Below the pieces are notes generated by a model, which saw nothing but the letters and a program-made list of their open reading frames with translations, searched no databases and had not been told where the DNA came from. Below, in pieces: positions 60-63,941 of a stretch of 64,000 nucleotides of DNA. Both the position numbers and the translations under genes were made by a program. Within the stretch, counting starts at the first letter, position 1. Every line of letters starts with the position of its first letter. Origin of the DNA: a virus; IMG/VR virus record IMGVR_UViG_3300008516_000159; one strand, 5' to 3'.

Positions 60-922
60 TCATATTAAAAGCTCCTTGGCGTGTTTCTTTTTTATTAAAG
101 GATCTATTATTTCGTATATTTCTTCAAAATCATCGGCCAACTTGTTGTTAAAATTATAACTCAATGGAACATGGTGAGAGCCTAAATCAAAGTCGTAATG
201 CGCTGGATCATCAGGATTTCCGTTACCGCGGATTTTAACAAAGCTTATTTTGCCAGCCTTCCAGCGGCCGCTCCATCTCACTAAATAATACGTATACGAA
301 TCAAACTTGAGTTGCGGTTTGATAAGCGCGAAATCTCTGCTACTAATATCTATTTTCTTCAGTTTCATCCTTGTTGCTCTCGCGCAGTATAAAGACTGCT
401 TTTTTGGAGTTGAGCTTCTTTATAAGTTTTTCGTTTTCCACCAACTCGAGACACCGAAAACTTGGGAGCCTTTCCCAATGTTGTCTTTGGAACTTGCCGG
501 TCTTTTTCTTATAGGCAATCATCATCATGCCTTTGTAGTGTAGTTCTTGGGCATACAAGTATATCTCGTCCTTGCGGTCAAGAGGCCAGGCCTTCATGAA
601 CCATTTACCCAAAAGAGAGTTGAGCATTATTTCATTTGCCGTCATATAATAGATACCTCTTCGCGTATTCTCGTTTTGTCAAAGGTCTTGTTTCGTTTCT
701 TGTAAGAGCCCTGAATGTGCTAGCCTTCCACCAGCTATGCTTACTTTCGCAATGGTCTCTCGACATATAGCTATCCATTCTGACAAAATACATAATCCTA
801 CCAGCGTTGGTCTTTCTGTGTCTTAGCACGGTATAGAATTTGCCATTGTCGTTCCATGTTTTATCGGACCACCTGAAATCTTGGCCTGCGTATACACTAC
901 CAACCTTTATTTTTCGTGACAT
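60..922 (-). CDS. three small hypothetical proteins (60-368, 343-645, 632-922)
   Basis: Overlapping, co-oriented ORFs of about 100 aa. Two end in an AKxxL-type motif (HAKELLI, YAKRYLL). Confidence 0.6.
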
Positions 923-1679
923 CCAACACCTTCTTTACCAACTTGACTGTGCGAATGGCTTTGTTTTTATCGCTGACATCAGGAGGCAAATTCGTTATAG
1001 CCTCCATAACCAAGTCAAACATCTCCATTAATTTTTTCGGAGTCCATTCTTCCGTCGGCTCTGTAGGATTTAACAGTCTTTTAGCTCGTTCGGTTCTTTC
1101 TTTTGCCATTCGTAACATTCCTTATACAGCCTCTTATGTATTTTATCGACTTCTTTTCGACACGATTCATACGTTTTGTTTTGCCACGTTTCACACTCTT
1201 TTTTCATGGCTTCAATCTCCGCGGCCGTTGTCCTCTGCGGTTTTTCCAGTGGAGGATTTAATAAGGCTTTTGCTTTTTTTGTTTTTGGTTTGGCCATATG
1301 TAATCAACTACCTCTCGTTTAGTCATCTTTCTCATCGTGGTGTTGCCACAACTCCAGGTTATCATCAAGATACTCTTCAAGGTTAATCTTGATACGATGT
1401 GGTGTTTTCCACATTTCCCAATTTTCTCTTTCTTGATCAAGTGGTTGTCGCGACCGTATGATCTCGCCCCACATTTCTTCCACTTCGCTGGCTGTTTTCT
1501 CTGGCGGGTTCAAAAGGTCTTTAGCTCTTTTTGTTTTCTCTTTTGGCATGACGTCTTATCTCTTTTATAATGTTATTGTCGAACTCATGGGCCATTTCTT
1601 CAGATACAATACGCCGTAGTAATTCTTCGACAGACGGCGGATTGAGAAGCTCTCTGGCTTTTTTTGCTTTTTCTGTCAA
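897..1679 (-). repeat. tandem array of four small paralogous genes sharing N-terminal K-x-[KE]-[KR]-A-[KR]-x-L-L-N-P-[PT]
   Basis: 897-1118 (RTERAKRLLNPT), 1070-1297 (KTKKAKALLNPP), 1319-1549 (KTKRAKDLLNPP), 1521-1679 (KAKKARELLNPP). Confidence 0.8.
1521..1679 (-). CDS. 52-aa protein missed by the ORF track, fourth member of the AKxLLNPP family
   Basis: Hand translation from TTG at 1679: MTEKAKKARELLNPPSVEELLRRIVSEEMAHEFDNNIIKEIRRHAKRENKKS, TAA at 1521-1523. Confidence 0.7.
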   Translation of the reverse strand: MTEKAKKARELLNPPSVEELLRRIVSEEMAHEFDNNIIKEIRRHAKRENKKS

Positions 1680-2935: not shown

Positions 2936-3361
2936 CTAACCAGTATGGCCGAAACCACCGCTGCTGCGATCTGTTTCGCTTAGGCTCATGTCTGTCGATA
3001 TAGACGGATGAATAACCTCAGCGAATACCATTTGAGCTATGCGATCTCCTGCTCTGATTTTGTATGGTGACGGACTATGGTTAATTATGAGAACCTTGAT
3101 CTCGCCCCTGTAATCACTATCTACGGTTCCGGGAGCGTTGAGGACTGTGAGCCCGTGATTGACAGCCAAACCGCTTCTCGGCCTAATCTGAGCTTCCATG
3201 TTCTGACTCATTGACATTCTGAGACCGGTTGGAACTAGCTTAAAGCGCTCAGCGCCAATCGTTACATCTTCAGAAGCATAAATATCATATCCACTGGAGC
3301 CATCGGTTTGTCTCTCTGGTGCTCTGGCGTTATCATTCAACAACTCAAATTCAACTAGCAT
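2936..3361 (-). CDS. dut: trimeric dUTPase
   Basis: Motifs SGYDI, RSGLA, GTVDSDYRGEI, RIAQ, DRSSGGFGHTG. Confidence 0.97.
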   Translation of the reverse strand: MLVEFELLNDNARAPERQTDGSSGYDIYASEDVTIGAERFKLVPTGLRMSMSQNMEAQIRPRSGLAVNHGLTVLNAPGTVDSDYRGEIKVLIINHSPSPYKIRAGDRIAQMVFAEVIHPSISTDMSLSETDRSSGGFGHTG

Positions 3362-3370
3362 GTCTTCTCC

Positions 3371-3469
3371 TTATTTCTTTTTCTTCTTATGTCTATCTCT
3401 TCTGCGTCGCTTTTTAAGCTTATGGGTTTTCACCTTCTGTCTGTGCCACTTTTTAGCCGAACGCGAAAT
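3371..3469 (-). CDS. 32-aa basic ribosomal protein bS22/mS38 (AURKAIP1/COX24)-like peptide with AUU start
   Basis: (M)SRSAKKWHRQKVKTHKLKKRRRRDRHKKKKK. AGGAG lies 7 nt before ATT and there is no in-frame ATG back to the previous stop. The TAA overlaps the SD of dut. Confidence 0.7.
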   Translation of the reverse strand: MSRSAKKWHRQKVKTHKLKKRRRRDRHKKKKK

Positions 3470-3495
3470 AAGTTTACTCCTTTGTGTGTTATGAG

Positions 3496-3503
3496 TATAT
3501 ATG
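3496..3503 (-). promoter_or_regulatory. CATATATA putative phage-sigma promoter
   Basis: Recurrent intergenic motif, here about 27 nt before the AUU start. Confidence 0.55.
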
Positions 3504-3843
3504 TTTTATACTTGGACTAAAAAATTGTCATTAGAAGGCTGGTAATCTATTAGGATAAAAGCAGAATCATCTCTGAAAGGGTTGATCTCTGTAACATCGG
3601 GACCATGGATTATTATTTCATGCTTTATTGCGATAGGTTTTTTAGTGGAAGGGCCATAGAAAAATTTTGGTCGATTGCTCCTATAATCGACGAGATCAAA
3701 ATTATTTATCTTTATTTCTAGCTCTTTTTCTACTTCTTTTATGAGGAAGTTCCGTATCGATTTTGGCCAACGCCACGATGGTGTGCATATGGATATCAAG
3801 AGAAAGGCTCGTTTCATGTAGGAAGTGCGTTCTGTAGATGTCA

Positions 3844-4137
3844 TTATTTTTCTATCGCCTTACCCTTCTTTTTGCCTCTTTTGAAGTGACGTCTCTTGAG
3901 TTTAGTCAGCGGAAGAACAGTCTCAGTGCTATCTATATTTGTGTCATCCACAAAATCGAACGTTTCATAAAACTTGGTCAGATCTTCATTGCAGCATTTA
4001 GAGTTAGCTATACGAATAGCTCTACCTTCATCACCGCTGCTTCTCAATACGGCGTTTGCTATTTTGACCCACTTCTTCTTTTCGGCAGAACTAAGTCCTT
4101 TCTTGTGCCTGTCTACATCCGACGGTTTCCAGGGCAT
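3844..4137 (-). CDS. small helical phage protein (ChaB-like N-terminus, tentative)
   Basis: MPWKPSDVDRHKKGLSSAEKKKWVKIANAVL...RAIRIANSK. Confidence 0.35.
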   Translation of the reverse strand: MPWKPSDVDRHKKGLSSAEKKKWVKIANAVLRSSGDEGRAIRIANSKCCNEDLTKFYETFDFVDDTNIDSTETVLPLTKLKRRHFKRGKKKGKAIEK

Positions 4138-4428
4138 TTTATTTCTCCTTGTAACTGTGTATCAATTTAATTAGTTCCAGTTTGTGTATTTCTTTCTGTT
4201 CGATCATGTTGAGATCATAGATTATCTTTAGCATTGACTTGGCATAGCGGTAGGGTTGTTTGCGAGTTACTTTAATCATCTCGCTGCCCTCTTTTGGACA
4301 GCGAGATTTCTTTCCAACATATACGCACATTGGGCAATATTTGTAGAGTTTTATTTCCTCCTCTAAAACTTTAGAGGGTTTATCAATCAGTTTCTTTATT
4401 TTTTTACGTCGCTCTTTCTGTTGCTTAT

Positions 4429-4914
4429 TCACATTAGGCAAAAGCTTCTTGGATTATAGTCGTTTGTTTCGTCGGGTTCGTTCGGCATCTGCTGCTCTTT
4501 ATTCTGTGGTGGTTGGTTCGGTCCCGGTTGTCCCCATATGACGTTATGAACCAAGAATATATAGTCCTCATAAGTAGAGGCAGATAACACACTTAAACCC
4601 ATATCTGTATATATTAGAATCGATGCAACAAGAGGGGATTGACCACCGCCAGGGTTTGTCCGGGCGAGCATGATCATTAAATTGCCGAAATATATTTCTG
4701 GCTCGAAAGGTCCCCAAACGTAGTTACCTTGTCCTTGTTTTTCACCATGCGGGTCACCAGTAATGTTGCCCCATTTCATATTCCATGGGCCATCGCAAAT
4801 AATCTCTACGTATATTTCAACATAATGTGTTTCTTCCTTTGCATCCTGTCCAAAGGCAAGAGCAAGAAAGGAAAAAAGAAAAATAAATGTTAATGCGAAT
4901 ATTAGTTTTTTCAC
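4429..4914 (-). CDS. exported protein with signal peptide
   Basis: MKKLIFALTFIFLFSFLALAFG followed by QDA; Pro/Gln/Asn-rich C-terminus. Confidence 0.6.
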   Translation of the reverse strand: MKKLIFALTFIFLFSFLALAFGQDAKEETHYVEIYVEIICDGPWNMKWGNITGDPHGEKQGQGNYVWGPFEPEIYFGNLMIMLARTNPGGGQSPLVASILIYTDMGLSVLSASTYEDYIFLVHNVIWGQPGPNQPPQNKEQQMPNEPDETNDYNPRSFCLM

Positions 4915-4946
4915 GTCTTCGCTCCCACAGCAACGAAGACTACGTT

Positions 4947-5873
4947 CTACCGATCTCCGTTACCGGTTGATTTTAATCGATTATACGTATTTAATACGTT
5001 CTCGGCAAACTCTCTTTGATTTGAATCTAAATCACTAAAGAGCGCTTCTCCATTTTGCCACCACTCTCGTTTTGTTATACTAGGTCCCCAGTTATAAGCT
5101 AATAATACCCATTCTACCCGACCGTCAAACTCATCGAATAAGTGTTTCAAAAACCTTATTTGAAGCTTCTTTGAATAAACCGGATCATATAGCTTATTTA
5201 TATCGTAACCATCAACCTGTAAAAGGCTGAAGTTAGTGTGAGCCCTCGATATTAACTTGGCGGTTAAAGGCATAAACTGACAAATGCCGCGGGCTCCAAC
5301 TGAACTTTTTGCCTTTTTATTATATTCGCTTTCTACACTATCCATAGCTAAAAGCAGAAAAGGATCGATTCCCGCCAAATTTCCTCCAGCATATGACACT
5401 TCGAGATAGCTTTTCATCTCTTTGTCGGTCATTGGAGAAAACTTCTTTTTTTTGATGTTCGCGGCATGTTCTTGATATTTGGAAGTAATTTTCTTTGCGC
5501 CGATTAGCATGAAGTTTTCGAATCGCTTCTTGTCATCAACGTAATATTCGGCGATGAGATTGTCTTTGATGTAAAACGCCGTGTCTATAATAGCCTGCGT
5601 TTCCTCTTGATGCTGAGTGATTAGCGCGTCTTTTTGAACTTCCCATTTGTGCCATCGCCCATAAAATACAGACAATAGTCCAACTATCATAAGAGATAGC
5701 ACAGCAATAACAAGAAAGGAATGTCTGCGATGTTCCTTGAGGCTTTTTTCGTATAGGTCTTTGTTGTGTTTAAGCAAAAGTTGCGCATCAGCCGTCAGAC
5801 CTTTTATAACGGGCCTATGCTCGCTCATTTTTTTCTCCTTGAGAGTCTTAGGTATTTTTCTATTTGACCGCAT
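4947..5873 (-). CDS. membrane-anchored lytic transglycosylase (SLT domain)
   Basis: Catalytic VESEY, GARGICQFMP, AYNWGP. N-terminal TM segment FLVIAVLSLMIVGLLSVFY. The true start may be MSEHRP, which has an AAGGAG SD. Confidence 0.9.
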   Translation of the reverse strand: MRSNRKIPKTLKEKKMSEHRPVIKGLTADAQLLLKHNKDLYEKSLKEHRRHSFLVIAVLSLMIVGLLSVFYGRWHKWEVQKDALITQHQEETQAIIDTAFYIKDNLIAEYYVDDKKRFENFMLIGAKKITSKYQEHAANIKKKKFSPMTDKEMKSYLEVSYAGGNLAGIDPFLLLAMDSVESEYNKKAKSSVGARGICQFMPLTAKLISRAHTNFSLLQVDGYDINKLYDPVYSKKLQIRFLKHLFDEFDGRVEWVLLAYNWGPSITKREWWQNGEALFSDLDSNQREFAENVLNTYNRLKSTGNGDR

Positions 5874-9455: not shown

Positions 9456-10079
9456 TTAGATATCCAGATGGGGTAATACATTCTGTCTTACCAATAAACT
9501 CCTTGGACTATGGCCTACAAACACTCTGTTTTTTAAACCCTCAAACCTTCTGAATTCATTTATCAATTCCCGACCGAACCACTTTTGTTTATTGGCCTTG
9601 AAGTGAGACGGTGTCTCTACCTTCTGCCAGTATGAATACCATCGGTCTACGTATAGATCCTGTCCTAATAAAACAATCTTTTCAAAACCCATCCACAGAG
9701 CCAACTCGGTAGCATATATGGCAGAACTCCCGGCCCTGCGCAATCCTTCCGGACCGAAAAGTCTATTATCTCCCACAGGAAGTCTCTTGACTCTTATCCA
9801 TTTGTACTTGCTGAACTTTGGTAGCGGCGCAAAGTCCATCAAGTTGTAAATATTTTCTTCGTTACCGTTTCTGTCCCAGATCCAATAGTAGTCAGTCCAA
9901 AACGGGATATGAAATACTGATTTATTATAAGAGATGGTGTACTGATCTCTAATTTTGTTCCAATCAAAATCTCTTAATGACGCACCGGTACCGACGATAT
10001 AAACCGTTTTTCCTACGTGTTTATCTTTAAAATCTTCGAATTTCAGATTTTCGTTTAAATGCTTTTGCCTTAGCTCCAT
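9456..10079 (-). CDS. DUF115 / MptE-like (Maf / sialyltransferase-like Rossmann fold) protein
   Basis: GKTVYIVGTGASL, SSAIYATELALWMGFEKIVLLGQDL. Confidence 0.75.
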   Translation of the reverse strand: MELRQKHLNENLKFEDFKDKHVGKTVYIVGTGASLRDFDWNKIRDQYTISYNKSVFHIPFWTDYYWIWDRNGNEENIYNLMDFAPLPKFSKYKWIRVKRLPVGDNRLFGPEGLRRAGSSAIYATELALWMGFEKIVLLGQDLYVDRWYSYWQKVETPSHFKANKQKWFGRELINEFRRFEGLKNRVFVGHSPRSLLVRQNVLPHLDI

Positions 10080-25359: not shown

Positions 25360-27468
25360 TCATATCTCAGGCACCATTATTTTGTTTATAATGAGATCAC
25401 CATCCCGCATCTTGCCCATTTTGAAAACCAAAACTTTATTTTTGATCAGGTTACGAGCACTTTCGTTAAATTGATGCGCAAACAACGGATAACGCCTTAC
25501 TCCGTTCTCATCCCTAATCGATACAAAAGCCATCATGTTGCCGTTTCTATCGCGCTTTCTTGTTACATCAGTTATAATGCCGATCAAAGCCCTACTATCA
25601 AGCATGCTTTTCAGCTGTGCTATCTCATCGGCCTTTTCTTCATACAGTATCATTGATATATCCAATGTCAATAAGTCCTGTAATAACTCCAGCTTTTCCT
25701 GCTTGTTCCAATCTGTTCCTTCCCTGGTCTTGATGAACTGTTCAAATGGAACTTTTGCGCCCTTCTTGCGCCACTCATCATAGTTAGTATACAGCGTCCT
25801 GCGATTGCCGTAAAGCTTATCAAAAGCGCCCGCTTGTATCAAGCTGTCAAGAACCCTCTTGTTTACTTTCGTGCCGGTTTTGTGCTCCTTCAATTTGGTG
25901 AAAAAGTCAGTAATACTCTCATGAGGCGCGTGCTCGGAAATCCATTTAGCGGGAACCACGCCGCAGTTCTTGACATGGCTCAATCCATAAATGACGGTCT
26001 TGTCGTCTATAATGCTAAAGTGCGTTTTACTTTTGTTTACGTCCGGATATAATACTTCTATACCAAGCTGCTTACATTCAGCAGTCAGCCTATCCACAGG
26101 GGTTTTGTCAGAGTTCAACGAGGCGCACATAAACTCAACAGGATAATGGACCTTGAGCCACGCGGTGTAATACGCAATGGTCGCATACGATAAAGAGTGG
26201 CTGCGGTTGAACTGGTAACCGGTCTGTTTGATAAGATATTCCCACAGCAGCCTCGTCTCTTTCTGATTTCTGTTTTTCTTTTGACAGCCCTCGAAGAACT
26301 CCTGCTCCCACTTCTTTTTACCCTTGGTGTCATTCTTGAACTTGGAGTGCCATTTTTCCATATAGCGCCTGAGTGAGTCCGCGCGGCCCAAACTAATTCC
26401 GGATGCCATGTGCGCAATGTTGATGGTTTGTTCCTGGAACACCAATAGACCCAAAGTAGGTTTTAATACCTCTTCTAGAACAGGATGCGCATACTTGATC
26501 TCCTCTTCGCCGTGTCTGCGTTTGATGTAGTTGTTTATAATAGGAATAGAACCTGGCCTGAATAAAGCATTCATGATTACAATATCCTCAAATATTTTAG
26601 GTTTCAGCTTTTGTAAATAACCTTTCATCGATGGACTTTCAAACTGAAACACAGAGGTGGTCAGGCCTTTGCCAAATAATTTATAAACATCTGGAACCTC
26701 GAAGTTTATATTATGTATGTCTATTTCTTTTCCATGCCTCTCCTTTATAAAGTCCAGCGTATCATGAATAATTTTGAGAGTAGACAGTCCGAGTATGTCA
26801 AGCTTCAACAGTTTCATTTCTGCTATTGACTCACCATCAAACTCAGTCAAAAGCATGTCATCATCCCTGTTGTACTGACATGGAATATATTTTTGGACAG
26901 CCTTGTCCGCTATGATGATGGCGGCTGCGTGTTTGCCATAGTTACGCATCTGTCCTAACAGTTTCTCAGCAAACTTGAAGATTTCAGGATACTGGTGATA
27001 AGCGCTGCTTTCGTTCCAGTTAGTTTCGTCTATGTTCTTGGATATAGCAATAGCTTTCTGGGCGGGTATACCATGTATTCTCGCGGAATCCTGAAAAGCT
27101 GACTTGATGGAATAAGTAATGACGTTACACACCTGAGCGACGTTCGTCTGACCAAATCTTCGCTTGATGTAATCAATGACATCACCTCTGCGGGCATCTT
27201 CAAAATCAATGTCTATATCAGGAGCTTTGCCAGATATCGTCAATTTTTCAGGTTCGTCATTTATGGGATCATGATGAATGTATCCCAACAAATACCAAAT
27301 CAGGATATTGGGATGCGGGTCGGTTCCGTTATCAACATCTTTCAAAAGGTTGGTGTGAGTTATGATCTCATATTTCTTGAACTCTTTTAGTTCATAATCC
27401 AATCGCTGGCGATGCTTCTCGTCGTTTATGCCTTTTTCTTTCAACAGGCGGTATAGTTTTTCTTTCAT
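25360..27468 (-). CDS. dnaE: DNA polymerase III alpha, C-terminal part (catalytic palm, fingers, HhH, OB)
   Basis: APDIDIDF, GKHAAAIII, KLDILGL, VFQFES, GYQFNRSH, OB fold. No PHP domain and no GRGS. Confidence 0.95.
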   Translation of the reverse strand: MKEKLYRLLKEKGINDEKHRQRLDYELKEFKKYEIITHTNLLKDVDNGTDPHPNILIWYLLGYIHHDPINDEPEKLTISGKAPDIDIDFEDARRGDVIDYIKRRFGQTNVAQVCNVITYSIKSAFQDSARIHGIPAQKAIAISKNIDETNWNESSAYHQYPEIFKFAEKLLGQMRNYGKHAAAIIIADKAVQKYIPCQYNRDDDMLLTEFDGESIAEMKLLKLDILGLSTLKIIHDTLDFIKERHGKEIDIHNINFEVPDVYKLFGKGLTTSVFQFESPSMKGYLQKLKPKIFEDIVIMNALFRPGSIPIINNYIKRRHGEEEIKYAHPVLEEVLKPTLGLLVFQEQTINIAHMASGISLGRADSLRRYMEKWHSKFKNDTKGKKKWEQEFFEGCQKKNRNQKETRLLWEYLIKQTGYQFNRSHSLSYATIAYYTAWLKVHYPVEFMCASLNSDKTPVDRLTAECKQLGIEVLYPDVNKSKTHFSIIDDKTVIYGLSHVKNCGVVPAKWISEHAPHESITDFFTKLKEHKTGTKVNKRVLDSLIQAGAFDKLYGNRRTLYTNYDEWRKKGAKVPFEQFIKTREGTDWNKQEKLELLQDLLTLDISMILYEEKADEIAQLKSMLDSRALIGIITDVTRKRDRNGNMMAFVSIRDENGVRRYPLFAHQFNESARNLIKNKVLVFKMGKMRDGDLIINKIMVPEI

Positions 27469-27483
27469 ATTGTTATGTATGTC

Positions 27484-29490
27484 TTATGATTTAGTAACGT
27501 CATGTAATACCTTTGCGAGAGTCTCGAGCGTAAACGGTTTCTGTATAACATCCTTGAAACCATAATCTTTGTAGTTGCTCATAGCATTGGATGTAGAATA
27601 GCCGCTTGAAACAATAGCCTTGACCTGCTTGTCTATTTCCAGGAGCCTCTTTATGGTCTCAATACCATCCATACCCCCAGGCATAGTAAGATCTATAACA
27701 ACGGCATCAAAGTGCTTATCTATCATGGAACCCTTGTAGGTCTCTAATGCCGCCTCACCGCACGACACCACGGTAACAGTGTAGCCCAAGTCTTCTATTA
27801 GATCCTTGGCTATCTCTCTAACCGGCGCCTGATCATCTACAAAGAGCACGTTGCCTCGGCCATTTAGGTGTGCATCCAAATCTTCTTCTTTTATTTCTTC
27901 TAAAGTCGTGGGTAAATACAAAAAGAATGTGGAGCCTTTGCCTAACTCGGAATCAACCCACACGCAGCCTTCGTGATTTTTGATAACAGAATAGGCGGTG
28001 GCCAATCCAAGCCCGCTTCCTGCGTGTTTAGTTGTGAAATAGGGATCAAATATTTTGTTGAGGTGTTCCTTTGGTATGCCTATGCCTTTGTCAGCAATCG
28101 TAACTTCCAAATATGCACCCGGCTTTAGATGAGCATCGCAAGGTACGCCCATGGGCGCCTTCACCTCTCTCGCCGCTAATTTTATGACGCCGCCTGTGGG
28201 CATGGATTGCATAGCGTTTATCAATATGTTTTGTATAACCTGAGATATTTGACCAGGATCAATGTGAGCGTTAGGTATGTCTTCTGGTATGTTGTATTCT
28301 ATTTTAGAGTTACAACCACTAGTGGTAAAAGTGGTTGTCTCCATTATAATTTCCTTTATGGATACTGTTCGACGAACTGGCAGACCTCCACTGGAGAATG
28401 TCAACAACTGCTGCGTCAGACTTTTAGCGCGCTTGCAGGCCTTTAGTGCCTGTACAAGTCTGTTTATTACTTCATTTTCCAGTTTTAGATCTGGCTCGTC
28501 GAGAACCTGGTCAGATTTTACATGTCTGCGGCTATGCATCAAAGCCAGTTCGACATTGCCACTGATAGCCGTCAGTATGTTATTGAAATCATGGGCAATA
28601 CCACCGGCCATTACGCCAACTGCTTCCAGTTTTTGGGATTTAGATAACTCCAACTCGGTCTTTCTCTGGAGTGTAATATCTCTAAACACCGCGACAGCAC
28701 CGACAATATCGCCTTCTTTATTTTTGATTGGCGCTGCTGTATTATCGATAAGCCGGCTTTTGCCTCGTTTAGATATAAGAACTACATCTTTTTTAAGTTC
28801 AATAATCTTACCTGTCTCTAGAGCCTTTTGTAACGGGTTAGGGGCCATTGCGTTGGTCTTTTCATCAAACAAATGAATGATGGCATCAAAAGGCTTTCCT
28901 ATCACTTCCTTCTGTTTCCAACCAAGTATGTGTTCCGCCATGCGGTTTAGTATAGTTATTTCGCCTTTGGCACCTACAGCGACAACACCATCGCTGATGC
29001 TCTTCAATGCAATATTTAATCGTTCGGTTTCTTCGGCCAAGGCTCGCTGCGCCTTTACCCTTTCGGTAATGTTGCGATGCTGCACTATAGCATTGACAAC
29101 TTTGTTCTTAATTATAATAGGCGTGATAGTTACATCTAACGCGAGGGCGCTGTGCATCGTAAGGTGTGCGTGTTTTATCTCTGCAGGAGTATAATCTAAC
29201 ATAAAATGCACAGGTTGTTTTTCATAGAAAACCTTATCTATGAGAGGAATCAAATTCTCTTTGTGAAACTCTTCATCCTTGAATAGATTATATACTCCAA
29301 CTACTTGTTCATCCGTGATATCAAACAGATCGCGGTTGACCTGGTTCTGCATAATCATTGTGCCCTTTTCGTCCGACAACCACATACTGTTTGGGCTGTT
29401 TTGTATGATTTTGCCGCAGAACTTATTTATATCTTCTTTTGTGATTTTGTTATTAGTATTTAGTAACAGGTCGTTTTTTCTTTTTCTCAT
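27484..29490 (-). CDS. hybrid sensor histidine kinase PAS-PAS-HisKA-HATPase-REC
   Basis: GIAHDFNNIL (H-box), NILINAMQ, DKGIGI, FDPYFTTK, GSGLGL, VDDQ...IDLTMPG...KPF. Confidence 0.95.
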   Translation of the reverse strand: MRKRKNDLLLNTNNKITKEDINKFCGKIIQNSPNSMWLSDEKGTMIMQNQVNRDLFDITDEQVVGVYNLFKDEEFHKENLIPLIDKVFYEKQPVHFMLDYTPAEIKHAHLTMHSALALDVTITPIIIKNKVVNAIVQHRNITERVKAQRALAEETERLNIALKSISDGVVAVGAKGEITILNRMAEHILGWKQKEVIGKPFDAIIHLFDEKTNAMAPNPLQKALETGKIIELKKDVVLISKRGKSRLIDNTAAPIKNKEGDIVGAVAVFRDITLQRKTELELSKSQKLEAVGVMAGGIAHDFNNILTAISGNVELALMHSRRHVKSDQVLDEPDLKLENEVINRLVQALKACKRAKSLTQQLLTFSSGGLPVRRTVSIKEIIMETTTFTTSGCNSKIEYNIPEDIPNAHIDPGQISQVIQNILINAMQSMPTGGVIKLAAREVKAPMGVPCDAHLKPGAYLEVTIADKGIGIPKEHLNKIFDPYFTTKHAGSGLGLATAYSVIKNHEGCVWVDSELGKGSTFFLYLPTTLEEIKEEDLDAHLNGRGNVLFVDDQAPVREIAKDLIEDLGYTVTVVSCGEAALETYKGSMIDKHFDAVVIDLTMPGGMDGIETIKRLLEIDKQVKAIVSSGYSTSNAMSNYKDYGFKDVIQKPFTLETLAKVLHDVTKS

Positions 29491-29984
29491 GATATTTCAG
29501 AACACGGCACACCATTCTCCATTAGAAATGTTGAGCCGCTTATATCTCTGTCATACGGCTTGTTGAAATATACTTCTTTCACCCCAGCTTGTAATATTAG
29601 TTTTGAGCATGGCATGCATGGGGAATAAGAAATATACAGAACAGAACCTTGAGTTCGCACGCCGTTTTTGGCGGCATATATTAGAGCGTTTGCTTCGGCA
29701 TGAAGCTCGTTCCGTTCGGAAAATATTCTATGTTCTTCTCTGAACAATTCGGAGTTTAGATAATCTTCGAAGGATTTGAATTCATCATAATAATTTAATT
29801 TGTAAACTAGCTTAAAATGTTCTTCGCAATGCTTCTGACCTTCAGGAACACCATTGTATCCCATGGATATTATACGGTTATCCCTAACCAAAAGACCACC
29901 GACTTTAATACGGGCACATGTGCTTCGACTTGCTACAATCTCGGTAATCTCTGAAAATACCTTTTTCCAATCCGGTCTGCTCAT
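29487..29984 (-). CDS. dCMP deaminase (ComEB family)
   Basis: RSTC.R.KVG, GYNG, HAEANAL, SPCMPC. Start trimmed to MSRPDW; ATGA overlap with the kinase gene. Confidence 0.95.
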   Translation of the reverse strand: MSRPDWKKVFSEITEIVASRSTCARIKVGGLLVRDNRIISMGYNGVPEGQKHCEEHFKLVYKLNYYDEFKSFEDYLNSELFREEHRIFSERNELHAEANALIYAAKNGVRTQGSVLYISYSPCMPCSKLILQAGVKEVYFNKPYDRDISGSTFLMENGVPCSEIS

Positions 29985-31962
29985 GTTATTTTCCTTTGCT
30001 TTTGGTGATTTCGACTTTAAACTTCCGACAGTATACAACCGTAAACTCAGACAGTTGTCCACATTCTTTTTTATGCCGGCATTGCCTACACTTTTTTGCT
30101 AACAGCTCATTTGGCGTTTCAGTTCGCTTTTTGCCCATCTGATAAATCCTCCGAAATCAACATCATGGTCGTGTGGAAAATGCGTATCCTCAGAATGCTC
30201 AGCCCAATCTATAGCACATTTTAAATCGTAATCACCATAATGAATGTCTTTTTTCAAACCCCAATTTTCACCATTACAGTAATCTCTATAAGCCATTAAC
30301 ATGACTCTACAAATCGCCATTTTCTGCTTCCTACACTATAACTCTTTACATTAGATATTGAATTACTCCGTCGACTTGAAATGCGCAGGAATTAATATAC
30401 GGACTGAGATAAACTGGAGCTTTATTAAAGTTACCTACCTGGTGTACGCCAATACTTGACGCAACTTTAATTGGCTCGAATTCATCGAACTCCACCATAG
30501 CCTTATAGCCCTCTAAACTAAGAATGATCCAATTCATTTTTAAAAACACCTTCGAAAGAGAATCTCCTATTACATTTCTTACAGAGACAAGAAATCGTGA
30601 GTCTATTCTGATCTACTCCTGTAAAATATGCAACTAAAGTTGTCTCCTCAGACTGTTCTATATCTTTACCATCACAATCTACATAAGCACACTCTTCTAT
30701 TCTGATCATTTACTTTCCGCCTTCTATTCAGGTTCGATTACGACTTGTTCCTCGTGCTTAAACTCAAAAGCAAAGCCACACGTTACGCATTCTGCCCTGT
30801 AACCGGCCGTGAAACAGCCATCATCGGCCAGATAGAACTCATAATCCTCACGCAATGATTCATCAAGCTTTATCGGCTCTCTTGATTCCAACAACAAGGC
30901 TTCATATGCCTCTGGTGTCAATTTTCCATAGCCAGCTCTTGCTTTTTTTGAAAGATCCTCTGCTTTACTTTCTGCCATCTTAAGACACCTTGGGCATGTT
31001 GTCCAATTATCTGCACTCATTTTTCCTCCTTTAGTTTACGTATACAACGGCGCAACCCATAAAACTCGAGTTTACATTCGCAGCAATAAAACAGGCATTT
31101 TCCTTTGCCCCATTCAACCGCGGTTACTGTGTGTCCTTGGTGCTCGCTGTATCGCGCTATATATTTATATTTCATCTTTTGTTTGTCATGTCAATCCCCA
31201 AGGCCATAAACACACCACCAAAAAAGCATCCACCTATAGACAACCAGAGGGCCAGCATCGAGTGGCCCGTTTCTATAAGAGTTGGATCTTTGAGAAAAAC
31301 CCATAATGATATAAATCCAGACCCGCCAAACACGCCACACAGTAGGCAAAGTGGCATAAATATCATTGCCCAATTAATCTTTTCCATCTCACCTTTCCTT
31401 TAGTTCACTAAAAGAAATGTGCTTTTCTTTTAATGCTTCGAGCCTTATTAAAGCTCTATCTGCCGATTTATTATTGCCTGTCCTGTAAGCTGTGCATAAA
31501 TCCTTATAGATGCTAACTTCTTTTTCGAGTCTTTGGATGCAAATGTGGTGTTCTTCTCTCTCTGATAACCACAATCCTTCTTCAGCGGTCCGTAATTCAT
31601 CGTTCTCCAACTGAAGCTTTTGAATACAAGCTTCTGCCTGCTGCAACGCTCCTTCAAGCGCTTGTGCATCTACGCCCGATAAGGGTTTCCGTTGTTTACA
31701 TGCCGCTCGTATTGTCAATTTGTTCATCTTTTTTTTACCTTCAGAGCTCTTTGGATAACGGGGTCGGGAAATCCTCGCCACGAAGAATCTTCTCCATTGT
31801 CTCGACGATGTTTACGCCAATGTGAAATAACACCTAGGTGAATAGTGTTTCTTCTTCCTTCTACAACTTTTCCACATTCCGAACATGTCCAAGTATCTCT
31901 GCACCTACTTTCTTGCAGTCCCACCTTATATTTCCTTATCTTTTTTCAAGGTCTGCTCCATC

Positions 31963-32349: not shown

Positions 32350-33570
32350 TTATCCTAAGAATTTTATTGTTTTACCGCCTAATCTTTCTGGATTTAAGAA
32401 GCGCTCAAACTGTAACTTGTGTACAATAGGATCAACATCTGTTATGTTCAGGGCATAGGCTATAAGAGATCCTGCTGCGCTTCCCCTGCCAGGTCCTACA
32501 TAAATATTTTCAGACTTGGCCCAGCCAACTATATCTGCCACTACTAAGAAATAAGAAGAAAATCCTGCGCTATAGATGATCTTGAGTTCATAAGCCAATC
32601 TCATCATGTAGGTGTCATTTCGCAAGCATCTCCTATCCAGACCCTCTACGCACTTTTTGCGGAGTATCTCATCAAGGTCGGCGCCCTCGAACTCTGGAAT
32701 AGGAGGCACGATATAATCATGCTGCTTAATATCAAACACCTCTATTTTATCGGCTATCTTTACGGTCGTATCACACCACCCCTCAATGTCCTTTTTATCG
32801 TAGCCGGTGTTTATGCCTTCTCTGATGATTTCTTCTCTTGAGTGCAAATATATATTGTCTTCGTCGAATTGAAGCCCTTTGTCGTCGCCTACTTTACCGC
32901 CAGTATTGACCAACAGCAGTTTGGCGTGATCGTCTTTCTGATCTGCCGTTATATAGTGGGCATCAGCGGTGATAATGGCTGGAACCTTCAACATTTTCCA
33001 GAACTTGTATAGTTTTATTTCTATGGCTTTTAATCTCTCGGTCTGATGTGGTTGAAACTCTATATAAAAGTCATCGCCAAATACATCAAGATACCAATCT
33101 AGGTTCCTCTTGGCCGCTTTTATATCATTGTTTATCAACATGCTTGTTACATCGTTGGCAAGACAGGCGGTTGTGGCTATTATATTTTTACTGTACGCCT
33201 TCAAGGTCTCTCTATCTATACGCGGTCTTTTATAAAAACCATAACGATGACCAATATATTGCATCTGCATTATGTTACGATAACCTTCGATGTTTTTCGC
33301 CAACAGTACAACATGAAAACGTTTTTCTCCCTTTGGTTTGACTTTCAGATCATCAACCATATAGGCCTCAACACCTATCAACGGTTTGATCTTGTATTTC
33401 TCGGCAAGGTGCCAGAACTCATAAACTCCTGACATTGTTCCATGATCGGTTATAGCTAAGGCAGGCTGCCTTAGTTCTTCTGCTACATACTTAAGGCGTG
33501 CTTTTTTCGTCCCTAGCCCATCGAGTGCACTAGAATCGGTGTGTACGTGAAGATTTACGAAGTTATCCAT
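32350..33570 (-). CDS. dnaE: DNA polymerase III alpha, N-terminal part (PHP domain plus palm start)
   Basis: HVHT, ITDHG, GVEAY, DAHY, GPGRGSAAGSL, FERFLNPER, then ends before PDIDID. Confidence 0.95.
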   Translation of the reverse strand: MDNFVNLHVHTDSSALDGLGTKKARLKYVAEELRQPALAITDHGTMSGVYEFWHLAEKYKIKPLIGVEAYMVDDLKVKPKGEKRFHVVLLAKNIEGYRNIMQMQYIGHRYGFYKRPRIDRETLKAYSKNIIATTACLANDVTSMLINNDIKAAKRNLDWYLDVFGDDFYIEFQPHQTERLKAIEIKLYKFWKMLKVPAIITADAHYITADQKDDHAKLLLVNTGGKVGDDKGLQFDEDNIYLHSREEIIREGINTGYDKKDIEGWCDTTVKIADKIEVFDIKQHDYIVPPIPEFEGADLDEILRKKCVEGLDRRCLRNDTYMMRLAYELKIIYSAGFSSYFLVVADIVGWAKSENIYVGPGRGSAAGSLIAYALNITDVDPIVHKLQFERFLNPERLGGKTIKFLG

Positions 33571-49945: not shown

Positions 49946-50297
49946 TGGAGCCGGGGAGGTTCGAACTCCCGTCCCTCGAATATTCACTTTGAAACACTAC
50001 ATGCTTAGCCCTGCTGCGGGATTCGGTTATTAATTCACAGGACGAAACGTCATAACCTAGCCTAACTTGTTTTTCGCTTTTGAATCGGTATTGGCTTCGG
50101 TTCAAATAGCATAGTCTCCGTTTCTGACGCCCTATTTCTCACCAGAGACAATAAGAAATAGAACGGCTGCTTAATTAAGCAGCAAGTGCAAGTGTTTCGT
50201 TAGCAACTATAGTTTGAATGGTCTTTTAAAGAGCCTTACCAAACTCTGCATGCGTCTCAAAGATCATCATCCCAGGTCGAATCCAAATGTCGGCCCC
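49946..50297 (-). ncRNA. ssrA: tmRNA, tag (A)ANETLALAA
   Basis: 5' GGGGCCG and 3' CGGCTCCA acceptor stem with G3:U70. T-arm GGGAG-TTCGAAC-CTCCC. Tag ORF at 50175-50204, preceded by ATAGTT and followed by a stem. Confidence 0.97.
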
Positions 50298-56863: not shown

Positions 56864-56935
56864 AGCCCCTACTCGGATTCGAACCGAGATAAGATGGTTT
56901 TAGAAACCACCGCCTAACCATTCGGCCATAGGGAC
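56864..56935 (-). tRNA. amber suppressor tRNA (anticodon CUA), Cys-like body, U73
   Basis: GTCCCTA/TAGGGGC acceptor, GTGGT-TTCTAAA-ACCAT anticodon arm, CTCGG-TTCGAAT-CCGAG T-arm. No encoded CCA. Confidence 0.9.
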
Positions 56936-57995: not shown

Positions 57996-58106
57996 TGTCT
58001 TTCTCCTATTTGATTTTAATTGGCGTGAATAGGAGCGACAATTACGGTGGTAATAAAGCCTATGTCATTCTGCTTTCCTCCTTTTTGTTACATGTTATTA
58101 TATATG
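57993..58106 (-). promoter_or_regulatory. leader with an amber-containing uORF and an SD/AUG-sequestering hairpin
   Basis: CATATATA, then AGGAGG, ATG ACA TAG GCT TTA TTA CCA CCG TAA, then TTGTC-G-CTCCTATT pairing with AATAGGAG-AAA-GACAA(TG). Confidence 0.65.
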
Positions 58107-59585: not shown

Positions 59586-59657
59586 TATCCCCGGTAGGAA
59601 TCGAACCTACAATCCAGGTTTAGGAAACCCGCGTTTTTTCCATTAGACTACGGGGAC
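59586..59657 (-). tRNA. tRNA-Arg(CCU)
   Basis: CGGGT-TTCCTAA-ACCTG anticodon arm; GTAGG-TTCGATT-CCTAC T-arm. Confidence 0.9.
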
Positions 59658-59926
59658 TCAAATGTGACCGTTAAGAGTCTTAATCACATTATTAAATAGT
59701 TCTCTGAACTTATCGTCGCCGTTCAAAAGAGCCTTGGCTGCATCTGTTTTTGTTATATCCACGCAGGCTTGCAAAACGGCAGCTAAGGCGGCAATTTTGT
59801 TATTTACGGTAGTATCGTAATCGTGTGATACCTTGAGATTGATTTCTTCGAGCTCGATTTTAGCTGGAGTATATCCACCAGATATTTGAATTTGATGCTC
59901 TTCCATATTTACTCCTTTAATAATGT

Positions 59927-59944
59927 GGGGCCCTTGCGGGCCCC
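59927..59944 (-). other. GC-rich GNRA hairpin downstream of the csp gene
   Basis: GGGGCCC-GCAA-GGGCCCC with no U-tract. Confidence 0.6.
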
Positions 59945-59953
59945 TCTGTTGAT

Positions 59954-60154
59954 TTAAAGAACCGTTACATTTGATGCTTGCAAACCCTTCGGACCCTCTT
60001 TTACGTCAAAAGAAACCTCTTGATCTTCAGCCAATGTTTTAAAGCCTTCGGTGTTAATTTCGGAGTAATGCACGAATACATCATCGCCATCATCCCTACT
60101 GATAAAACCAAAACCTTTCTTTTCATTAAACCACTTTACTCTTCCTTCTGGCAT
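59954..60154 (-). CDS. cold-shock protein (CspA family)
   Basis: [37 protein letters not shown]. Start trimmed to MPEG. Confidence 0.97.
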
Positions 60155-60198
60155 TAAAACTAAAACCTCCAAACTAAAATTGTGGCCAAACTGGCCAT

Positions 60199-60271
60199 TA
60201 TCCCCGGCAGGACTCGAACCTGCGTATATCTGATTAGAAATCAGATGCGTGCTCCACTACGCTACGGGGAC
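60199..60271 (-). tRNA. tRNA-Arg(UCU)
   Basis: TCTGA-TTTCTAA-TCAGA anticodon arm; GCAGG-TTCGAGT-CCTGC T-arm. Confidence 0.92.
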
Positions 60272-60279
60272 TCTAATAA

Positions 60280-60975
60280 TTAATCCCAAAGACTCATGAA
60301 GTGCATAGCAAATAAATCCAATCCCTTTTGGACCCTTTCGTAATATTCCATTTCAAGGTCAAAATTGTAATAAGAAATATCCTCTCCGAGATATTCCCTG
60401 TTTGCATTCTCAGGATCCTCTGGAGGAAGATATGAACTCATGACGTGTTTGTCGTTATCCTCTCCGCACCTGTATGCATAATAAACTGTTCTATTCTCTG
60501 GTGTTTTCTCATGAGGATATTTTAGTCCATATTTTTTTAGCATCCTGTCGCGTTTCTTATCATTAGCTTCGTAGCAAGTAATAAACTCAAACGCAAAAAC
60601 CATCTCATTCAAAACCTCATTCCACGCCTTTTCACCACCACCAGCCATTTTGCCCTTTGCGACAGCATCATCATATTCTTCCTTGGATTCCCACTCCTCT
60701 TCATAATAATCAGAAAAAAAAGAAGGATATCCATGTCGCGGCGCGTTTTTAAAAGCTTGAAGTTTGCCAAGAATGATTGGCGCTAAATGATTAGACAACC
60801 CCCACAGATCACAGTCTGAAGCGTGATATGTTCGAAACGCTCTTTGAGAAAACCATTTTACAGATCTATACGCGAGACCGATTTTTTCGATTTTCCATCT
60901 GATCCTTTTTAAAAAAGAAATCTTGCCAGCTCCCTCCTCTTCAGACAAATAATCCAAAAAGCTTTTCTCTACCAT
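60280..60975 (-). CDS. hypothetical protein (231 aa)
   Basis: Long acidic ORF: DLWGL..HLAPII...W...L.EM..AFE...QKGLDLFA.HF.SLWD. Confidence 0.7.
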   Translation of the reverse strand: MVEKSFLDYLSEEEGAGKISFLKRIRWKIEKIGLAYRSVKWFSQRAFRTYHASDCDLWGLSNHLAPIILGKLQAFKNAPRHGYPSFFSDYYEEEWESKEEYDDAVAKGKMAGGGEKAWNEVLNEMVFAFEFITCYEANDKKRDRMLKKYGLKYPHEKTPENRTVYYAYRCGEDNDKHVMSSYLPPEDPENANREYLGEDISYYNFDLEMEYYERVQKGLDLFAMHFMSLWD

Positions 60976-61174
60976 ATTATAACTCCCAGGACATTATTGT
61001 GTCTGTCGATAGTCCTCATCTGTTTTTAGGAAAACAGCAAGTCCAAATTACTGTCACAAGAATTGCAATACCCGTAGCGCCAAGCAGTAGTTGATTAAAC
61101 AATGATATCATTTCACTGCTTATATCCACATTGTCCTCTTGCTTTGTTATCTGTGTTTCTTTTCTTAAAATATC

Positions 61175-61843
61175 CTAATCATATATATGTGCCGTATCTG
61201 CTAGTTTGTTCCTGATGACAGGCTTGTTCATCCAATGTTCATCTTCTTCGAGCTGCTTAATGAACTCCGCTCTCACCAGCTTACCGCGCTGCTGCTTGCG
61301 ATAATTTTTTATAACTATACCTTCCATCATATCCTTGAAAGAACAATGAGAAGTCATTATAAAGTCATCCAAAGAATTAGTTTCTGTATAACCATAATAT
61401 AAGACAGGCACATGCTGAAAACCGAACTTTTTAACCTCCTGTATTCTATCGCCATGGTCAAGAAACTTTTTACCATTCCATATGTCAAAAACCAAAAAAT
61501 ACGATGGCAATTTATCGTAATCTATATTATGCTGAGCATACATTAATTCGCCGTAAATTATCCAGCCGATTGGAATCTGTACTATCTTTGGCTCATTGTG
61601 TCTTGCCCAATTCCAAAAGAATGAGAACTGTGGATGTATGCTATCCGCAAGACCTCTCCGCTTTTGCAAAGTCCAACCCTGTTTGCTGCGAATTATGCCG
61701 ACATTAGCTCCGTCAACTTTTTCGGTAATCTCAACTCTACCGGTCAAAAGAGCGTTCTGCTCCTGCTTGGACAGACAAAATTTGCCGCGGATCCGGATCT
61801 TAGGCGAAACCACCCTAAATGTCTTTTCGTACTTCAGGTACAT
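61175..61843 (-). CDS. ATP-dependent RNA ligase family protein
   Basis: Motif I EKVDGAN, IYGEL, FLVFDI, EGIVIK, GKLV. Confidence 0.85.
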   Translation of the reverse strand: MYLKYEKTFRVVSPKIRIRGKFCLSKQEQNALLTGRVEITEKVDGANVGIIRSKQGWTLQKRRGLADSIHPQFSFFWNWARHNEPKIVQIPIGWIIYGELMYAQHNIDYDKLPSYFLVFDIWNGKKFLDHGDRIQEVKKFGFQHVPVLYYGYTETNSLDDFIMTSHCSFKDMMEGIVIKNYRKQQRGKLVRAEFIKQLEEDEHWMNKPVIRNKLADTAHIYD

Positions 61844-62106
61844 CTTTAAATGAACCCCTTGAAAGTCCCTAAATTATTTACCATGGACTCGTTAAGTTCG
61901 AAATGTTTACAAGAACCAAATTTATGAATACTCAACTCTCTTGTTGTTTCGCTATGCTTGAGGTGATCATACTTGTGTAGACCACAGGTGCCCCACTCAG
62001 AGTTAGGAAAATTACTGTGCAGACAAAGGCCACACACTTTACAAACTTGATAATCTATTTTCTGAAGCTTAGCGAGTTTATTGGCGTCCATGTTGGCTCC
62101 TTATAT

Positions 62107-62180
62107 TACCCTCGGCAGGACTCGAACCTGCGATCTCTGCGTTCGAAGCGCAGCATCTTAGTCCACTAGACGACGAGGGC
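62107..62180 (-). tRNA. tRNA-Arg(UCG)
   Basis: CTGCG-CTTCGAA-CGCAG anticodon arm. Confidence 0.92.
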
Positions 62181-62350
62181 TCGGTTTAAAATCAGTGCAA
62201 GCTAGCTCCTTTTGGTTGAGGATTGGGATGTTGTGACTGTCACAATGGCCCAATCCATCATCACAGTTCCAGAGTTGAAAGTGCGCGCAACCAGCGCAAT
62301 GACTCTCACCTAGGAGCAGCTCTCTAGCTATTTCAGCTTTCATCTTCATT

Positions 62351-62424
62351 AGGCCAGGACAGGATTCGGACCTGCATCATCTCGGGTTGCAACCGAGCGC
62401 CTAAGCCATTTCAGCCACCTGGCC
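62351..62424 (-). tRNA. tRNA-Cys(GCA)
   Basis: CTCGG-TTGCAAC-CCGAG anticodon arm; U73; T-loop TCCGAAT. Confidence 0.9.
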
Positions 62425-63443
62425 GTTTAATCAGAATCGAGGATATCAACAATCTGCCAGTGACAATACTCATCAAACTGACGAGGTTCTAATATCTTTC
62501 TGGCAGCCGCGGCATCACCCTGCGTAGCTTTTTCGTATATCCTGGATTCCATTTCTTTCAGATCATCAAACAATTGCCAATCCTTATCCAGGTAATTAAA
62601 GCACGCGAGAAAAGCTTTTGCCATCAGCTCTTCTGTTGATGCATCCCAGGCTATGGGAGCAATCTTTCTGTTTTCGTACAAAAGTATCCTGTCCATGTTT
62701 TCTCCTGTCTATCTTCTTTAATTTAACTTCGTCCTCGGCCTTCATCCGCATTAGATTGTCCATTGCCAGACATCTGCCACAAACAACCTTTTTACGGTTT
62801 GCTTGATGCCACCATCGGTTTCCACAGTCGCACTCTATTAAAAGATAATTAACTCTTGAAGACCAGCGAGCATCAATTATAGCCAGCTTTTTCTGCATTT
62901 CTCACAACACCTCACACATCAACCCAGATCTACTTTTTTCCAGCGCGAGTGGAAGTACTTTAATTTCTTTTTCATCTTTCTACACTTCTCACAGTACTTC
63001 GTATACTTATGCACTCCTGGGTGATCCTCGCTACCAGTATATCTTTCTATTGTTGGTATCCATACCCAATCATGTTTACACATCACATATATCCTAGGTT
63101 TCTGATATGCCTGCGTTTTATCGTGGGATATTTTCTTCTTTTCCTTCCCATTTGTTACAATACATTTCCTTTGGAAATGCTTCTTGTTTCAAGTTTCTCT
63201 CGTCGCAAAAGTAGTACAATCCAGATACTGCGAACTCTGTGTGCATGTGACAACAGTTTTTACAAGAACCAGATTTTAGCAATAGTCTTTTTGCTATTGT
63301 TTTTCTTGAAATATTTTTTAACTTATCTATTGTTTTTTCTAATGGTTCAACTGGCCGCAATTCTTGATTCCACAAAACAGGCATTTGCACCTTATAATAA
63401 TTATTGCTATCGTCGCTCATTAAATTCTCAACCTATATTCTTG

Positions 63444-63529
63444 TGCCCGAGGAGAGATTCGAACTCTCACGACCTTCAAGATCACAAGGCCCTCGACCTT
63501 GCGCGGCTACCTAGTTACGCCACCCGGGC
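63444..63529 (-). tRNA. tRNA-Leu(GAG), long variable arm, atypical C33
   Basis: CAAGG-TCGAGGG-CCTTG anticodon arm; variable stem GATC-TTGAA-GGTC. Confidence 0.85.
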
Positions 63530-63868
63530 TATTTCCTCTCTTCTGGATCACCGCAAAATATACAGCAATCACTAGATTCGTGATCGGGATTATAACATTT
63601 GAGAATAATTTTCTCCTTGTTTACAGAGACTACATATTTATTCCCAGACTTATCTGTTTTAGAGAAATAATGGCATATGTGATCTGGACTCTTCGGGCAA
63701 TACCAACAAAGAAATTGACCTCCTGTTTTACCGTAACCACCACGGTAACCACAATGTTTACATTCGGCCCCACCATAAACCTTGCTCTTCATTTCGTGCC
63801 AACATTCACCGCGCAGGATTTTCTTAGCTTTTTCTGTCTTTGGCATGCTCTCTGTTTTATATTTCATT

Positions 63869-63941
63869 TGGAGCTGAGGGGATTCGAACCCCTTACCTAC
63901 TGAATGCCATTCAGCCGCTCTCCCAATTGAGCTACAGCCCC
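63869..63941 (-). tRNA. tRNA-Ala(GGC)
   Basis: G3:U70; GCTGA-ATGGCAT-TCAGT anticodon arm with A32/U38. Confidence 0.93.

Follow-up and report, generated by a model that had tools for sequence, protein, structure and literature searches.

A question raised by the 64,000-nucleotide (nt) stretch of viral DNA analyzed here (IMG/VR record IMGVR_UViG_3300008516_000159; called the window below, always at its full length) is whether the 144-nt gap between two minus-strand genes, an ORFan upstream and the dUTPase gene dut downstream, holds a further gene that begins at an ATT codon. The initial annotation, made from the sequence alone, had placed there an unannotated gene for a 32-residue peptide resembling the ribosomal proteins bS22 and mS38, and every element that it listed is present on the minus strand. 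From the ATT at 3469..3467 the frame runs through 32 sense codons to a TAA at 3373..3371 (gene 3469..3371, assigned by homology and conservation); 19 of these codons (59%) specify Lys or Arg, and the last five residues are Lys. A Shine-Dalgarno (SD) sequence, AAGGAG at 3482..3477 (read directly), precedes the ATT with the claimed 7-nt spacer. Another 13 nt upstream of the SD is a promoter-like motif, CATATATA (3503..3496), which comes just past the upstream gene's stop and leaves 26 nt to the ATT, where about 27 nt had been estimated. The frame stays open back to that stop (TAA 3508..3506) with no ATG, as claimed, and with no GTG or TTG either; at its other end its own TAA abuts the GGAG that stands 5 nt ahead of the dut ATG (3361..3359), so that the stop does meet the SD of dut as had been described. 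We regard it as well supported that this frame is a real gene overlooked by gene finders, and as likely that it functions in the phage, encoding a highly basic bS22-family peptide of 32 residues that acts by the mechanism proposed below.

The start signals alone are a poor guide. The window has about 17 places where an SD-like motif leads into an ATT with 30 or more open codons behind it, and 56 such places for SD plus ATG, which is how genes here usually start; that part of the observation is therefore not above chance and the case cannot rest there. What does rise above chance is family similarity together with conservation in a diverged relative. The same 17 cases, along with the ease with which basic low-complexity peptides align, are what can be said for a chance resemblance, in which a non-coding A/G-rich spacer merely translates into a basic peptide. 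We also considered and rejected an RNA element in place of a gene, as no Rfam family matched and the predicted local fold, in which SD and ATT are unpaired, was no more stable than those of shuffled sequences.

Family membership was assessed with structures and with genomes. A phmmer search of the PDB (177,635 distinct sequences, E-values up to 10) returned six matches, all of them bS22, mS38 or eL41: F. johnsoniae bS22 was best (7JIL chain 5, E 0.0094, 19 of 28 residues identical), and the remainder were an mS38, B. burgdorferi bS22, two eL41 and P. gingivalis bS22, with mS38 and eL41 holding the second, fourth and fifth places. This search is the independent, non-circular test of the family. 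Scanning the raw DNA of species-representative genomes with a back-translated pattern of the bS22 core gave at least 119 loci, and those among the matches listed came nearly all from the FCB group (Bacteroidota, Ignavibacteria, Chlorobi, Zixibacteriota and Neomarinimicrobiota), with the others from Omnitrophota, a PVC bacterium and spirochaetes. Each bacterial match listed lies within a frame of 29–34 residues and the consensus is near-invariant; the bacterial consensus that the initial annotation had given agrees letter for letter with the one recovered from Bacteroidota genomes. The window peptide contains the complete core K-[VIM]-x-T-H-K-x-K-K-[RK]-x-R-x-x-R-H-K and retains all the positions that are invariant across the bacterial bS22 among the matches listed, of which the nearest (21 identities) is from a Zixibacteriota metagenome-assembled genome (MAG); with an Omnitrophota bS22 it has the tail R-R-R-R-D-R-H-K-K-K in common.

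Against a profile built from 62 distinct bacterial bS22 sequences among the matches listed, the window peptide scored 23.0 bits, its residues 5–31 falling on profile positions 4–30 of 30. Shuffled peptides of the same composition averaged –7.8 bits (standard deviation 3.2, maximum 18.4) and none of 20,000 reached 23, a comparison that is partly circular because the fishing pattern had been chosen from positions common to the window peptide and the PDB sequences. When the window and 80 unrelated viral loci were translated in six frames (526 kb, 19,222 segments), the small frame was the only significant match (E 1e–4), the runner-up segment reaching 11.7 bits; a weak match upstream of dut in one other locus (L001) was judged to be noise. 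A chance resemblance accounts for neither of these results. Nor does it account for a tblastx comparison of 11 viral loci with the whole window, which matched the small frame alone, or for the codon-periodic substitutions described next, and the absence of any Rfam family or notable fold likewise counts against it; we consider it scarcely credible. The PDB matches and the profile score place the peptide in the bS22/mS38/eL41 group, as the initial annotation had supposed, and by sequence comparison its assignment to the bS22 family, of the Bacteroidota/FCB-Spirochaete type, is well supported.

Conservation could be examined in a 2,075-bp metagenome contig (L219), which was found by a metagenome scan with the pattern K-W-H-R-x-K-V-K-x-H-K and whose flanks match window positions 3038–3373 (86% identity) and 3837–4883 (85%). 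The relative retains CATATATA, a 12-nt gap, AAGGAG, a 7-nt spacer, the ATT and the 32-codon frame, so the expectation that relatives would keep both the frame and its AUU holds there. Ten codons of the small gene differ between the two, nine synonymously and one non-synonymously (Arg21 to Gln, a residue also found at position 21 in other phage bS22-like copies); with 19–28% of random substitutions being synonymous, the probability of at least nine of ten under neutrality is 3e–6 to 9e–5. Over dut the same pair shows 20 synonymous and 17 non-synonymous differences. The codon pattern demonstrates purifying selection on the small gene, as far as a comparison of two sequences reaches. The comparison also bears on the start. 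In L219 an in-frame TAA stands six codons ahead of the ATT, and the CTT near the SD of the window, the only other conceivable start codon there, reads TTA; behind the SD, neither sequence thus offers a near-cognate codon other than ATT. Since the family alignments reach residue 4–5, translation must begin at the ATT or just before it. That ATT is a conserved start codon, as first proposed, is on these comparisons well supported.

A captured host bS22 gene whose ATG mutated to ATT, leaving an as yet undecayed relic without a start codon, would fit the great rarity of ATT starts in bacteria and phages, and a frame of 32 codons could remain open for a while by chance. Such a dying copy would not be expected to keep its ATT in two diverged lineages, nor to conserve the SD and its spacing while the spacer itself changed (three of its seven bases differ). 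Nine synonymous changes against one non-synonymous change accumulated after the ATT arose, which requires selection on the protein, and we hold this explanation to be very unlikely.

The comparison with L219 also contains a trap for frame-based conservation tests. A plus-strand antisense frame (3360..3494, 44 residues, hydrophobic) has no stops across its overlap with the minus-strand gene, is open in L219 as well (832..987, plus strand) and differs from it by one residue in the overlap, so that it might itself be taken for the true gene. However, it shares its wobble positions with the small gene and for that reason shows equally few amino-acid changes, and the antisense of Lys/Arg-rich genes is open by composition. 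Its start (ATG in the window, TTG in L219) and both of its termini differ between the two sequences, no SD lies ahead of it, and it runs opposite to all the neighboring genes, which are on the minus strand. It would moreover leave unexplained why the minus-strand peptide matches a family conserved across bacterial phyla. Taking the antisense frame as the gene seems to us highly improbable, and we retain the minus-strand bS22-like gene.

The same pair of sequences differs around the small gene. L219 lacks the ORFan found upstream in the window, and between the small gene and dut it carries a gene for a 119-residue membrane protein (394–753, minus strand) and a hairpin (960–1030), from which it follows that linkage to dut is not obligatory. 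The bS22 cassette remains in place while neighbor genes are exchanged. The absence of the upstream gene in L219, where the small gene is kept, also argues against the small gene being a readthrough extension of that upstream gene, with which it shares a frame in the window; this candidate was rejected as well because the intervening stop is TAA, whereas the suppressor tRNA of the phage reads TAG.

Pattern scans of IMG/VR raw DNA recovered bS22-like genes in other viral contigs. Diverged copies with ATG starts were found in contigs of 297 kb (L083; 93% complete by CheckV) and 231 kb (L084), and an 18-kb relative of the former (L081) carries the same type. Between L083 and L081 the bS22-like genes differ by nine synonymous changes and one non-synonymous change, with flanks that are about 71% identical in patches. 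A 115,399-bp contig (L218, 99% complete) encodes at 656–748 on the minus strand an actinobacterial-type peptide (M-G-S-V-V-K-K...) that scores 17.1 bits with NCBIfam ribo_bS22 and 20.3 bits with Pfam COX24_C, both under the cut-off. In L215 the gene (9557–9649, plus strand) starts with TTG behind a strong SD, GAGGAGG, is identical in a metagenome contig (L220), and encodes a peptide sharing the K-W-H-R-x-K-V-K-x-H-K element with that of the window. The L215 gene lies amid genes for a glycosyltransferase, a radical-SAM protein and an epimerase, and the contig also has an HK97-capsid match. Because, by the tblastx comparison above, the viral loci share nothing else with the window, acquisition or retention of bS22 in several lineages is indicated.

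Other pattern matches were set aside. Four (L208, L211, L214 and L216) were false positives within longer Lys/Gln-rich proteins. Two more, L082 and L209, carry canonical Bacteroidota bS22 genes (2101–2187 and 3023–3109, respectively, both minus strand) beside genes for RNase G, DnaK and MutY, and were rejected as phage genes, being host DNA at prophage edges; a further four (L210, L212, L213 and L217) have bS22 sequences identical to those copies and were judged to be host flanks of prophages. In L082 an integrase gene (4270–5598) lies about 2 kb from bS22, which suggests that integration takes place near bS22 in the bacterial chromosome.

Among characterized proteins the window peptide most resembles the bS22 of F. 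johnsoniae (Fjoh_1533, 7JIL chain 5), P. gingivalis (9I5V) and B. burgdorferi (bb0822, 8FMW chain V), which are likewise about 30 residues long and about 60% Lys/Arg, with the collinear core K-[VI]-x-T-H-K-x-K-K-R-x-R-x-x-R-H-K-K and a C-terminal Lys run. Annotation overlooks the window gene and its cellular relatives alike; the Borrelia gene, with a GUG start, was unannotated (PMC10618245). The window peptide differs from cellular bS22 in being phage-encoded, in an N-terminus that is one residue longer and reads (M)-S-R-S-A instead of M-P-[SC]-G, in Trp-His in place of Arg-Lys, and in a Leu at the near-invariant Arg of T-H-K-R. Its gene differs in starting with ATT rather than ATG or GTG and, in contrast to Bacteroidia genes, in its strong SD. 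Predicted non-ATG starts nevertheless recur in the bS22 family: five of the six spirochaete genes among the matches listed start with GTG (L162, L176, L193, L203 and L204), and a Cytophagia gene (L177) has only GTG or TTG available. In mitochondrial and eukaryotic ribosomes the structural and positional counterparts of bS22 are mS38 (AURKAIP1/COX24, Pfam PF08213) and eL41 (PMC10618245). A K-W-H/W-R element is common to both of these and the window peptide, and full-length mS38 is much longer; as judged from the sequences, the relation to mS38 and eL41 is distant or analogous and not one of membership.

As a phage gene it takes its place beside those for bS21, bL12, bL31, bL33 and others (Mizuno et al. 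2019, PMC6375957; Chen et al. 2022, PMC9723584), which are also small, loosely bound, exchangeable ribosomal proteins occurring in phages, especially large aquatic ones. Their presumed role is the remodeling of host ribosomes during infection, and viruses preferentially encode ribosomal proteins of this loosely bound, exchangeable kind (PMC6375957). The 2019 survey reported 14 virus-encoded ribosomal proteins and does not mention bS22 in its main text (PMC6375957), and full-text literature searches found no report of a viral bS22, in keeping with the earlier impression that it had not been highlighted in phages. With a gene this short and a start too unusual for standard gene callers, surveys of called proteins would miss it. 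The protein family and phage-encoded ribosomal proteins are both known; what is new is bS22 among the latter, with a conserved ATT start. For the start itself the parallel is E. coli infC, where an AUU is likewise conserved behind a good SD. Initiation factor IF3 discriminates against AUU starts, as at infC, which makes expression of that gene IF3-dependent. Unlike infC, the window gene does not encode IF3, and the analysis saw no sign of autoregulation.

How might such a peptide act? Cellular bS22 is a single bent helix in a pocket formed by helices h2, h27, h44 and h45 of the 16S rRNA, with a Lys tail that contacts the 50S subunit (PMC7797042; PMC10618245). In M. smegmatis it affects how readily aminoglycosides reach h44 (PMC10081302). 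According to a 2026 structural paper it dissociates from isolated 30S subunits, and its C-terminus is predicted to come close enough to the IF3 C-terminal domain for contact (PMC13000457). In the mechanism that we propose, the small gene would be transcribed from the phage's own putative CATATATA-type promoter, as a short cassette with dut directly after it, and would then be translated from the strong, unstructured SD with its AUU start. The peptide would bind the 30S subunit or the 70S ribosome of the infected cell, presumably in the h44/h45 pocket, and would replace or supplement any loosely bound bS22 of the host, much as has been proposed for phage bS21 and bL12 with their own counterparts. 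By analogy with its cellular relatives we infer that it occupies the bS22 pocket on infected-cell ribosomes. Output of the peptide would be low by default, as expected given that IF3 discriminates against AUU, and higher when there is too little IF3 for the 30S subunits present; a strong promoter and SD giving low expression that responds to IF3 is plausible as the simplest meaning of the conserved ATT. Control of this gene through initiation fidelity, as the initial annotation had supposed, would follow from the behavior of AUU starts and IF3 at infC, and the predicted proximity of bS22 to the IF3 C-terminal domain makes that idea more interesting. A bolder proposal, which we think quite unlikely, is that the start and the product are functionally linked, such that a phage variant of bS22, a neighbor of the docking place of the IF3 C-terminal domain, could alter IF3 binding or start-codon fidelity on the 30S subunits of infected cells while its own synthesis senses, or feeds back on, the IF3:30S balance. 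If this were true, the phage would create, in addition to its tmRNA, tRNAs and amber suppressor, a specialized pool of ribosomes that initiate by altered rules.

Several points weigh against a phage bS22 acting in this way, besides the partial circularity of the shuffle test. Initiation at AUU is normally weak, a poor match for a protein of which every ribosome needs one copy. Both the selection and the ATT conservation rest on one diverged relative, L219. Two further assemblies (L206 from JGI and L207 from Logan) agree letter for letter with the window over their full length, also at the ATT; they exclude an assembly-private error at the ATT, and being identical to the window they may share samples with it and are not independent populations. 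Curated profiles gave no passing score, with 8.6 bits for Pfam PF08213 COX24_C (cut-off 23) and no match in NCBIfam, including NF047430 ribo_bS22. Genuine bS22 from Bacteroides, Borreliella and a Flavobacterium MAG (a calibration sequence whose residues 3–30 equal the aligned part of the 7JIL chain) likewise gave no match or sub-threshold scores with Pfam and NCBIfam. The miss of the window peptide is thus uninformative, as these profiles do not cover this branch of the family, and so is the refuting condition named in the initial annotation, a missing profile match.

The remaining points concern function. Being 59% Lys/Arg, the peptide would bind RNA or DNA of any kind; it departs from the near-invariant bacterial consensus among the matches listed at about one position in three, and the Trp of its K-K-W-H-R brings it nearer to mS38 and eL41 than to Bacteroidota bS22. 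These features would suit a peptide descended from bS22 that now has another role, be it general nucleic-acid binding or condensing, RNA chaperoning, or inhibition by blocking the pocket of the host ribosome. Yet the peptide retains its length, its Lys tail and the positions invariant in the listed bacterial bS22, the Trp variant is found again in L215/L220, an independent lineage, and several unrelated large phages keep bS22 under purifying selection, which fits a conserved, specific target. We therefore rate a changed role as unlikely and favor a functional ribosomal bS22.

The surroundings are those of a large uncultured phage, of which the window is a piece. The dut gene (3361..2936, minus strand) is the next cistron and is clearly assigned (Pfam dUTPase, E 2.9e–34; NCBIfam dut, 4.2e–49); a search for homologues of dut returned unrelated phages only. 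The upstream gene (3844..3506, minus strand) encodes a 112-residue protein that has no Pfam, NCBIfam or PHROG family and matches itself alone among 5.8 billion proteins, the product being on record from a 191-kb contig. Elsewhere the window has genes for a split DnaE, DnaB, a primase and lysozyme-like proteins that match PHROG; its genes are almost all co-oriented and include many ORFans, and the flanking genes are phage ORFans. A tmRNA with the tag ANETLALAA lies at 49946–50297 (minus strand), a tRNA with a CUA anticodon (amber suppressor) at 56864–56935 (minus strand), and six more tRNAs at 59586–63941, for seven tRNAs in total. The phage genes, tmRNA, tRNAs and ORFan flanks together place the small gene inside a bona fide phage genome rather than in a host flank, and the tmRNA, the tRNAs and the bS22-like gene make up a sizeable translation toolkit. 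The two DnaE parts (25360–27468 and 32350–33570, both minus strand) are about 5 kb apart and match PHROG 405 at positions 42–440 and 441–1053; between them lie, among others, a gene for a 668-residue kinase-like protein (27484–29490) and a 191-residue frame (29487–30062).

The motif ahead of the small gene is not confined to it. CATATATA occurs 22 times in the window against 2.6 expected, a number reached by none of 100 shuffles, with copies spanning 1833–61189 (e.g., at 58106, 56967, 24177, 16642 and 3503). All but three are on the minus strand, in the sense of the genes (19 of 22), and for several an SD with its ATG, or a tRNA, follows 5–35 nt downstream. One copy is directly ahead of the CUA-suppressor tRNA. 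From this distribution, CATATATA probably marks a phage-specific promoter class.

On origin and host, the Logan contig bearing the locus comes from run SRR3095939, which sampled Baltic Sea sediment 0.75–3 m below the sea floor (PMC9301287). Bacteroidia ribosomes ignore the SD (PMC7797042), and the prevalence of SD plus ATG in the window argues against a Bacteroidia host. Megablast of 2.5 kb of the window found no match among GenBank phages. A tblastn search of phages with the small peptide also gave none, its low-complexity filter masking the query, and the 44-residue stop-to-stop version shared words with no candidate protein. In IMG/VR there was no close relative of the 112-residue upstream protein, of a 308-residue lysozyme-like protein or of the C-terminal DnaE part.

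Being only 32 codons long, starting with ATT and passing no profile, the gene is invisible to surveys that use called proteins and curated profiles. Raw-DNA pattern scans turned up this family in a number of unrelated large phages, and bS22 is therefore probably a recurrent and overlooked part of the viral translation toolkit. A conserved AUU start is rare on a phage gene, and this one would allow IF3-dependent expression to be tested directly in a gene other than infC. As bS22 sits on the decoding-center side of the subunit interface, a phage version would be a natural probe of a poorly understood ribosomal protein.

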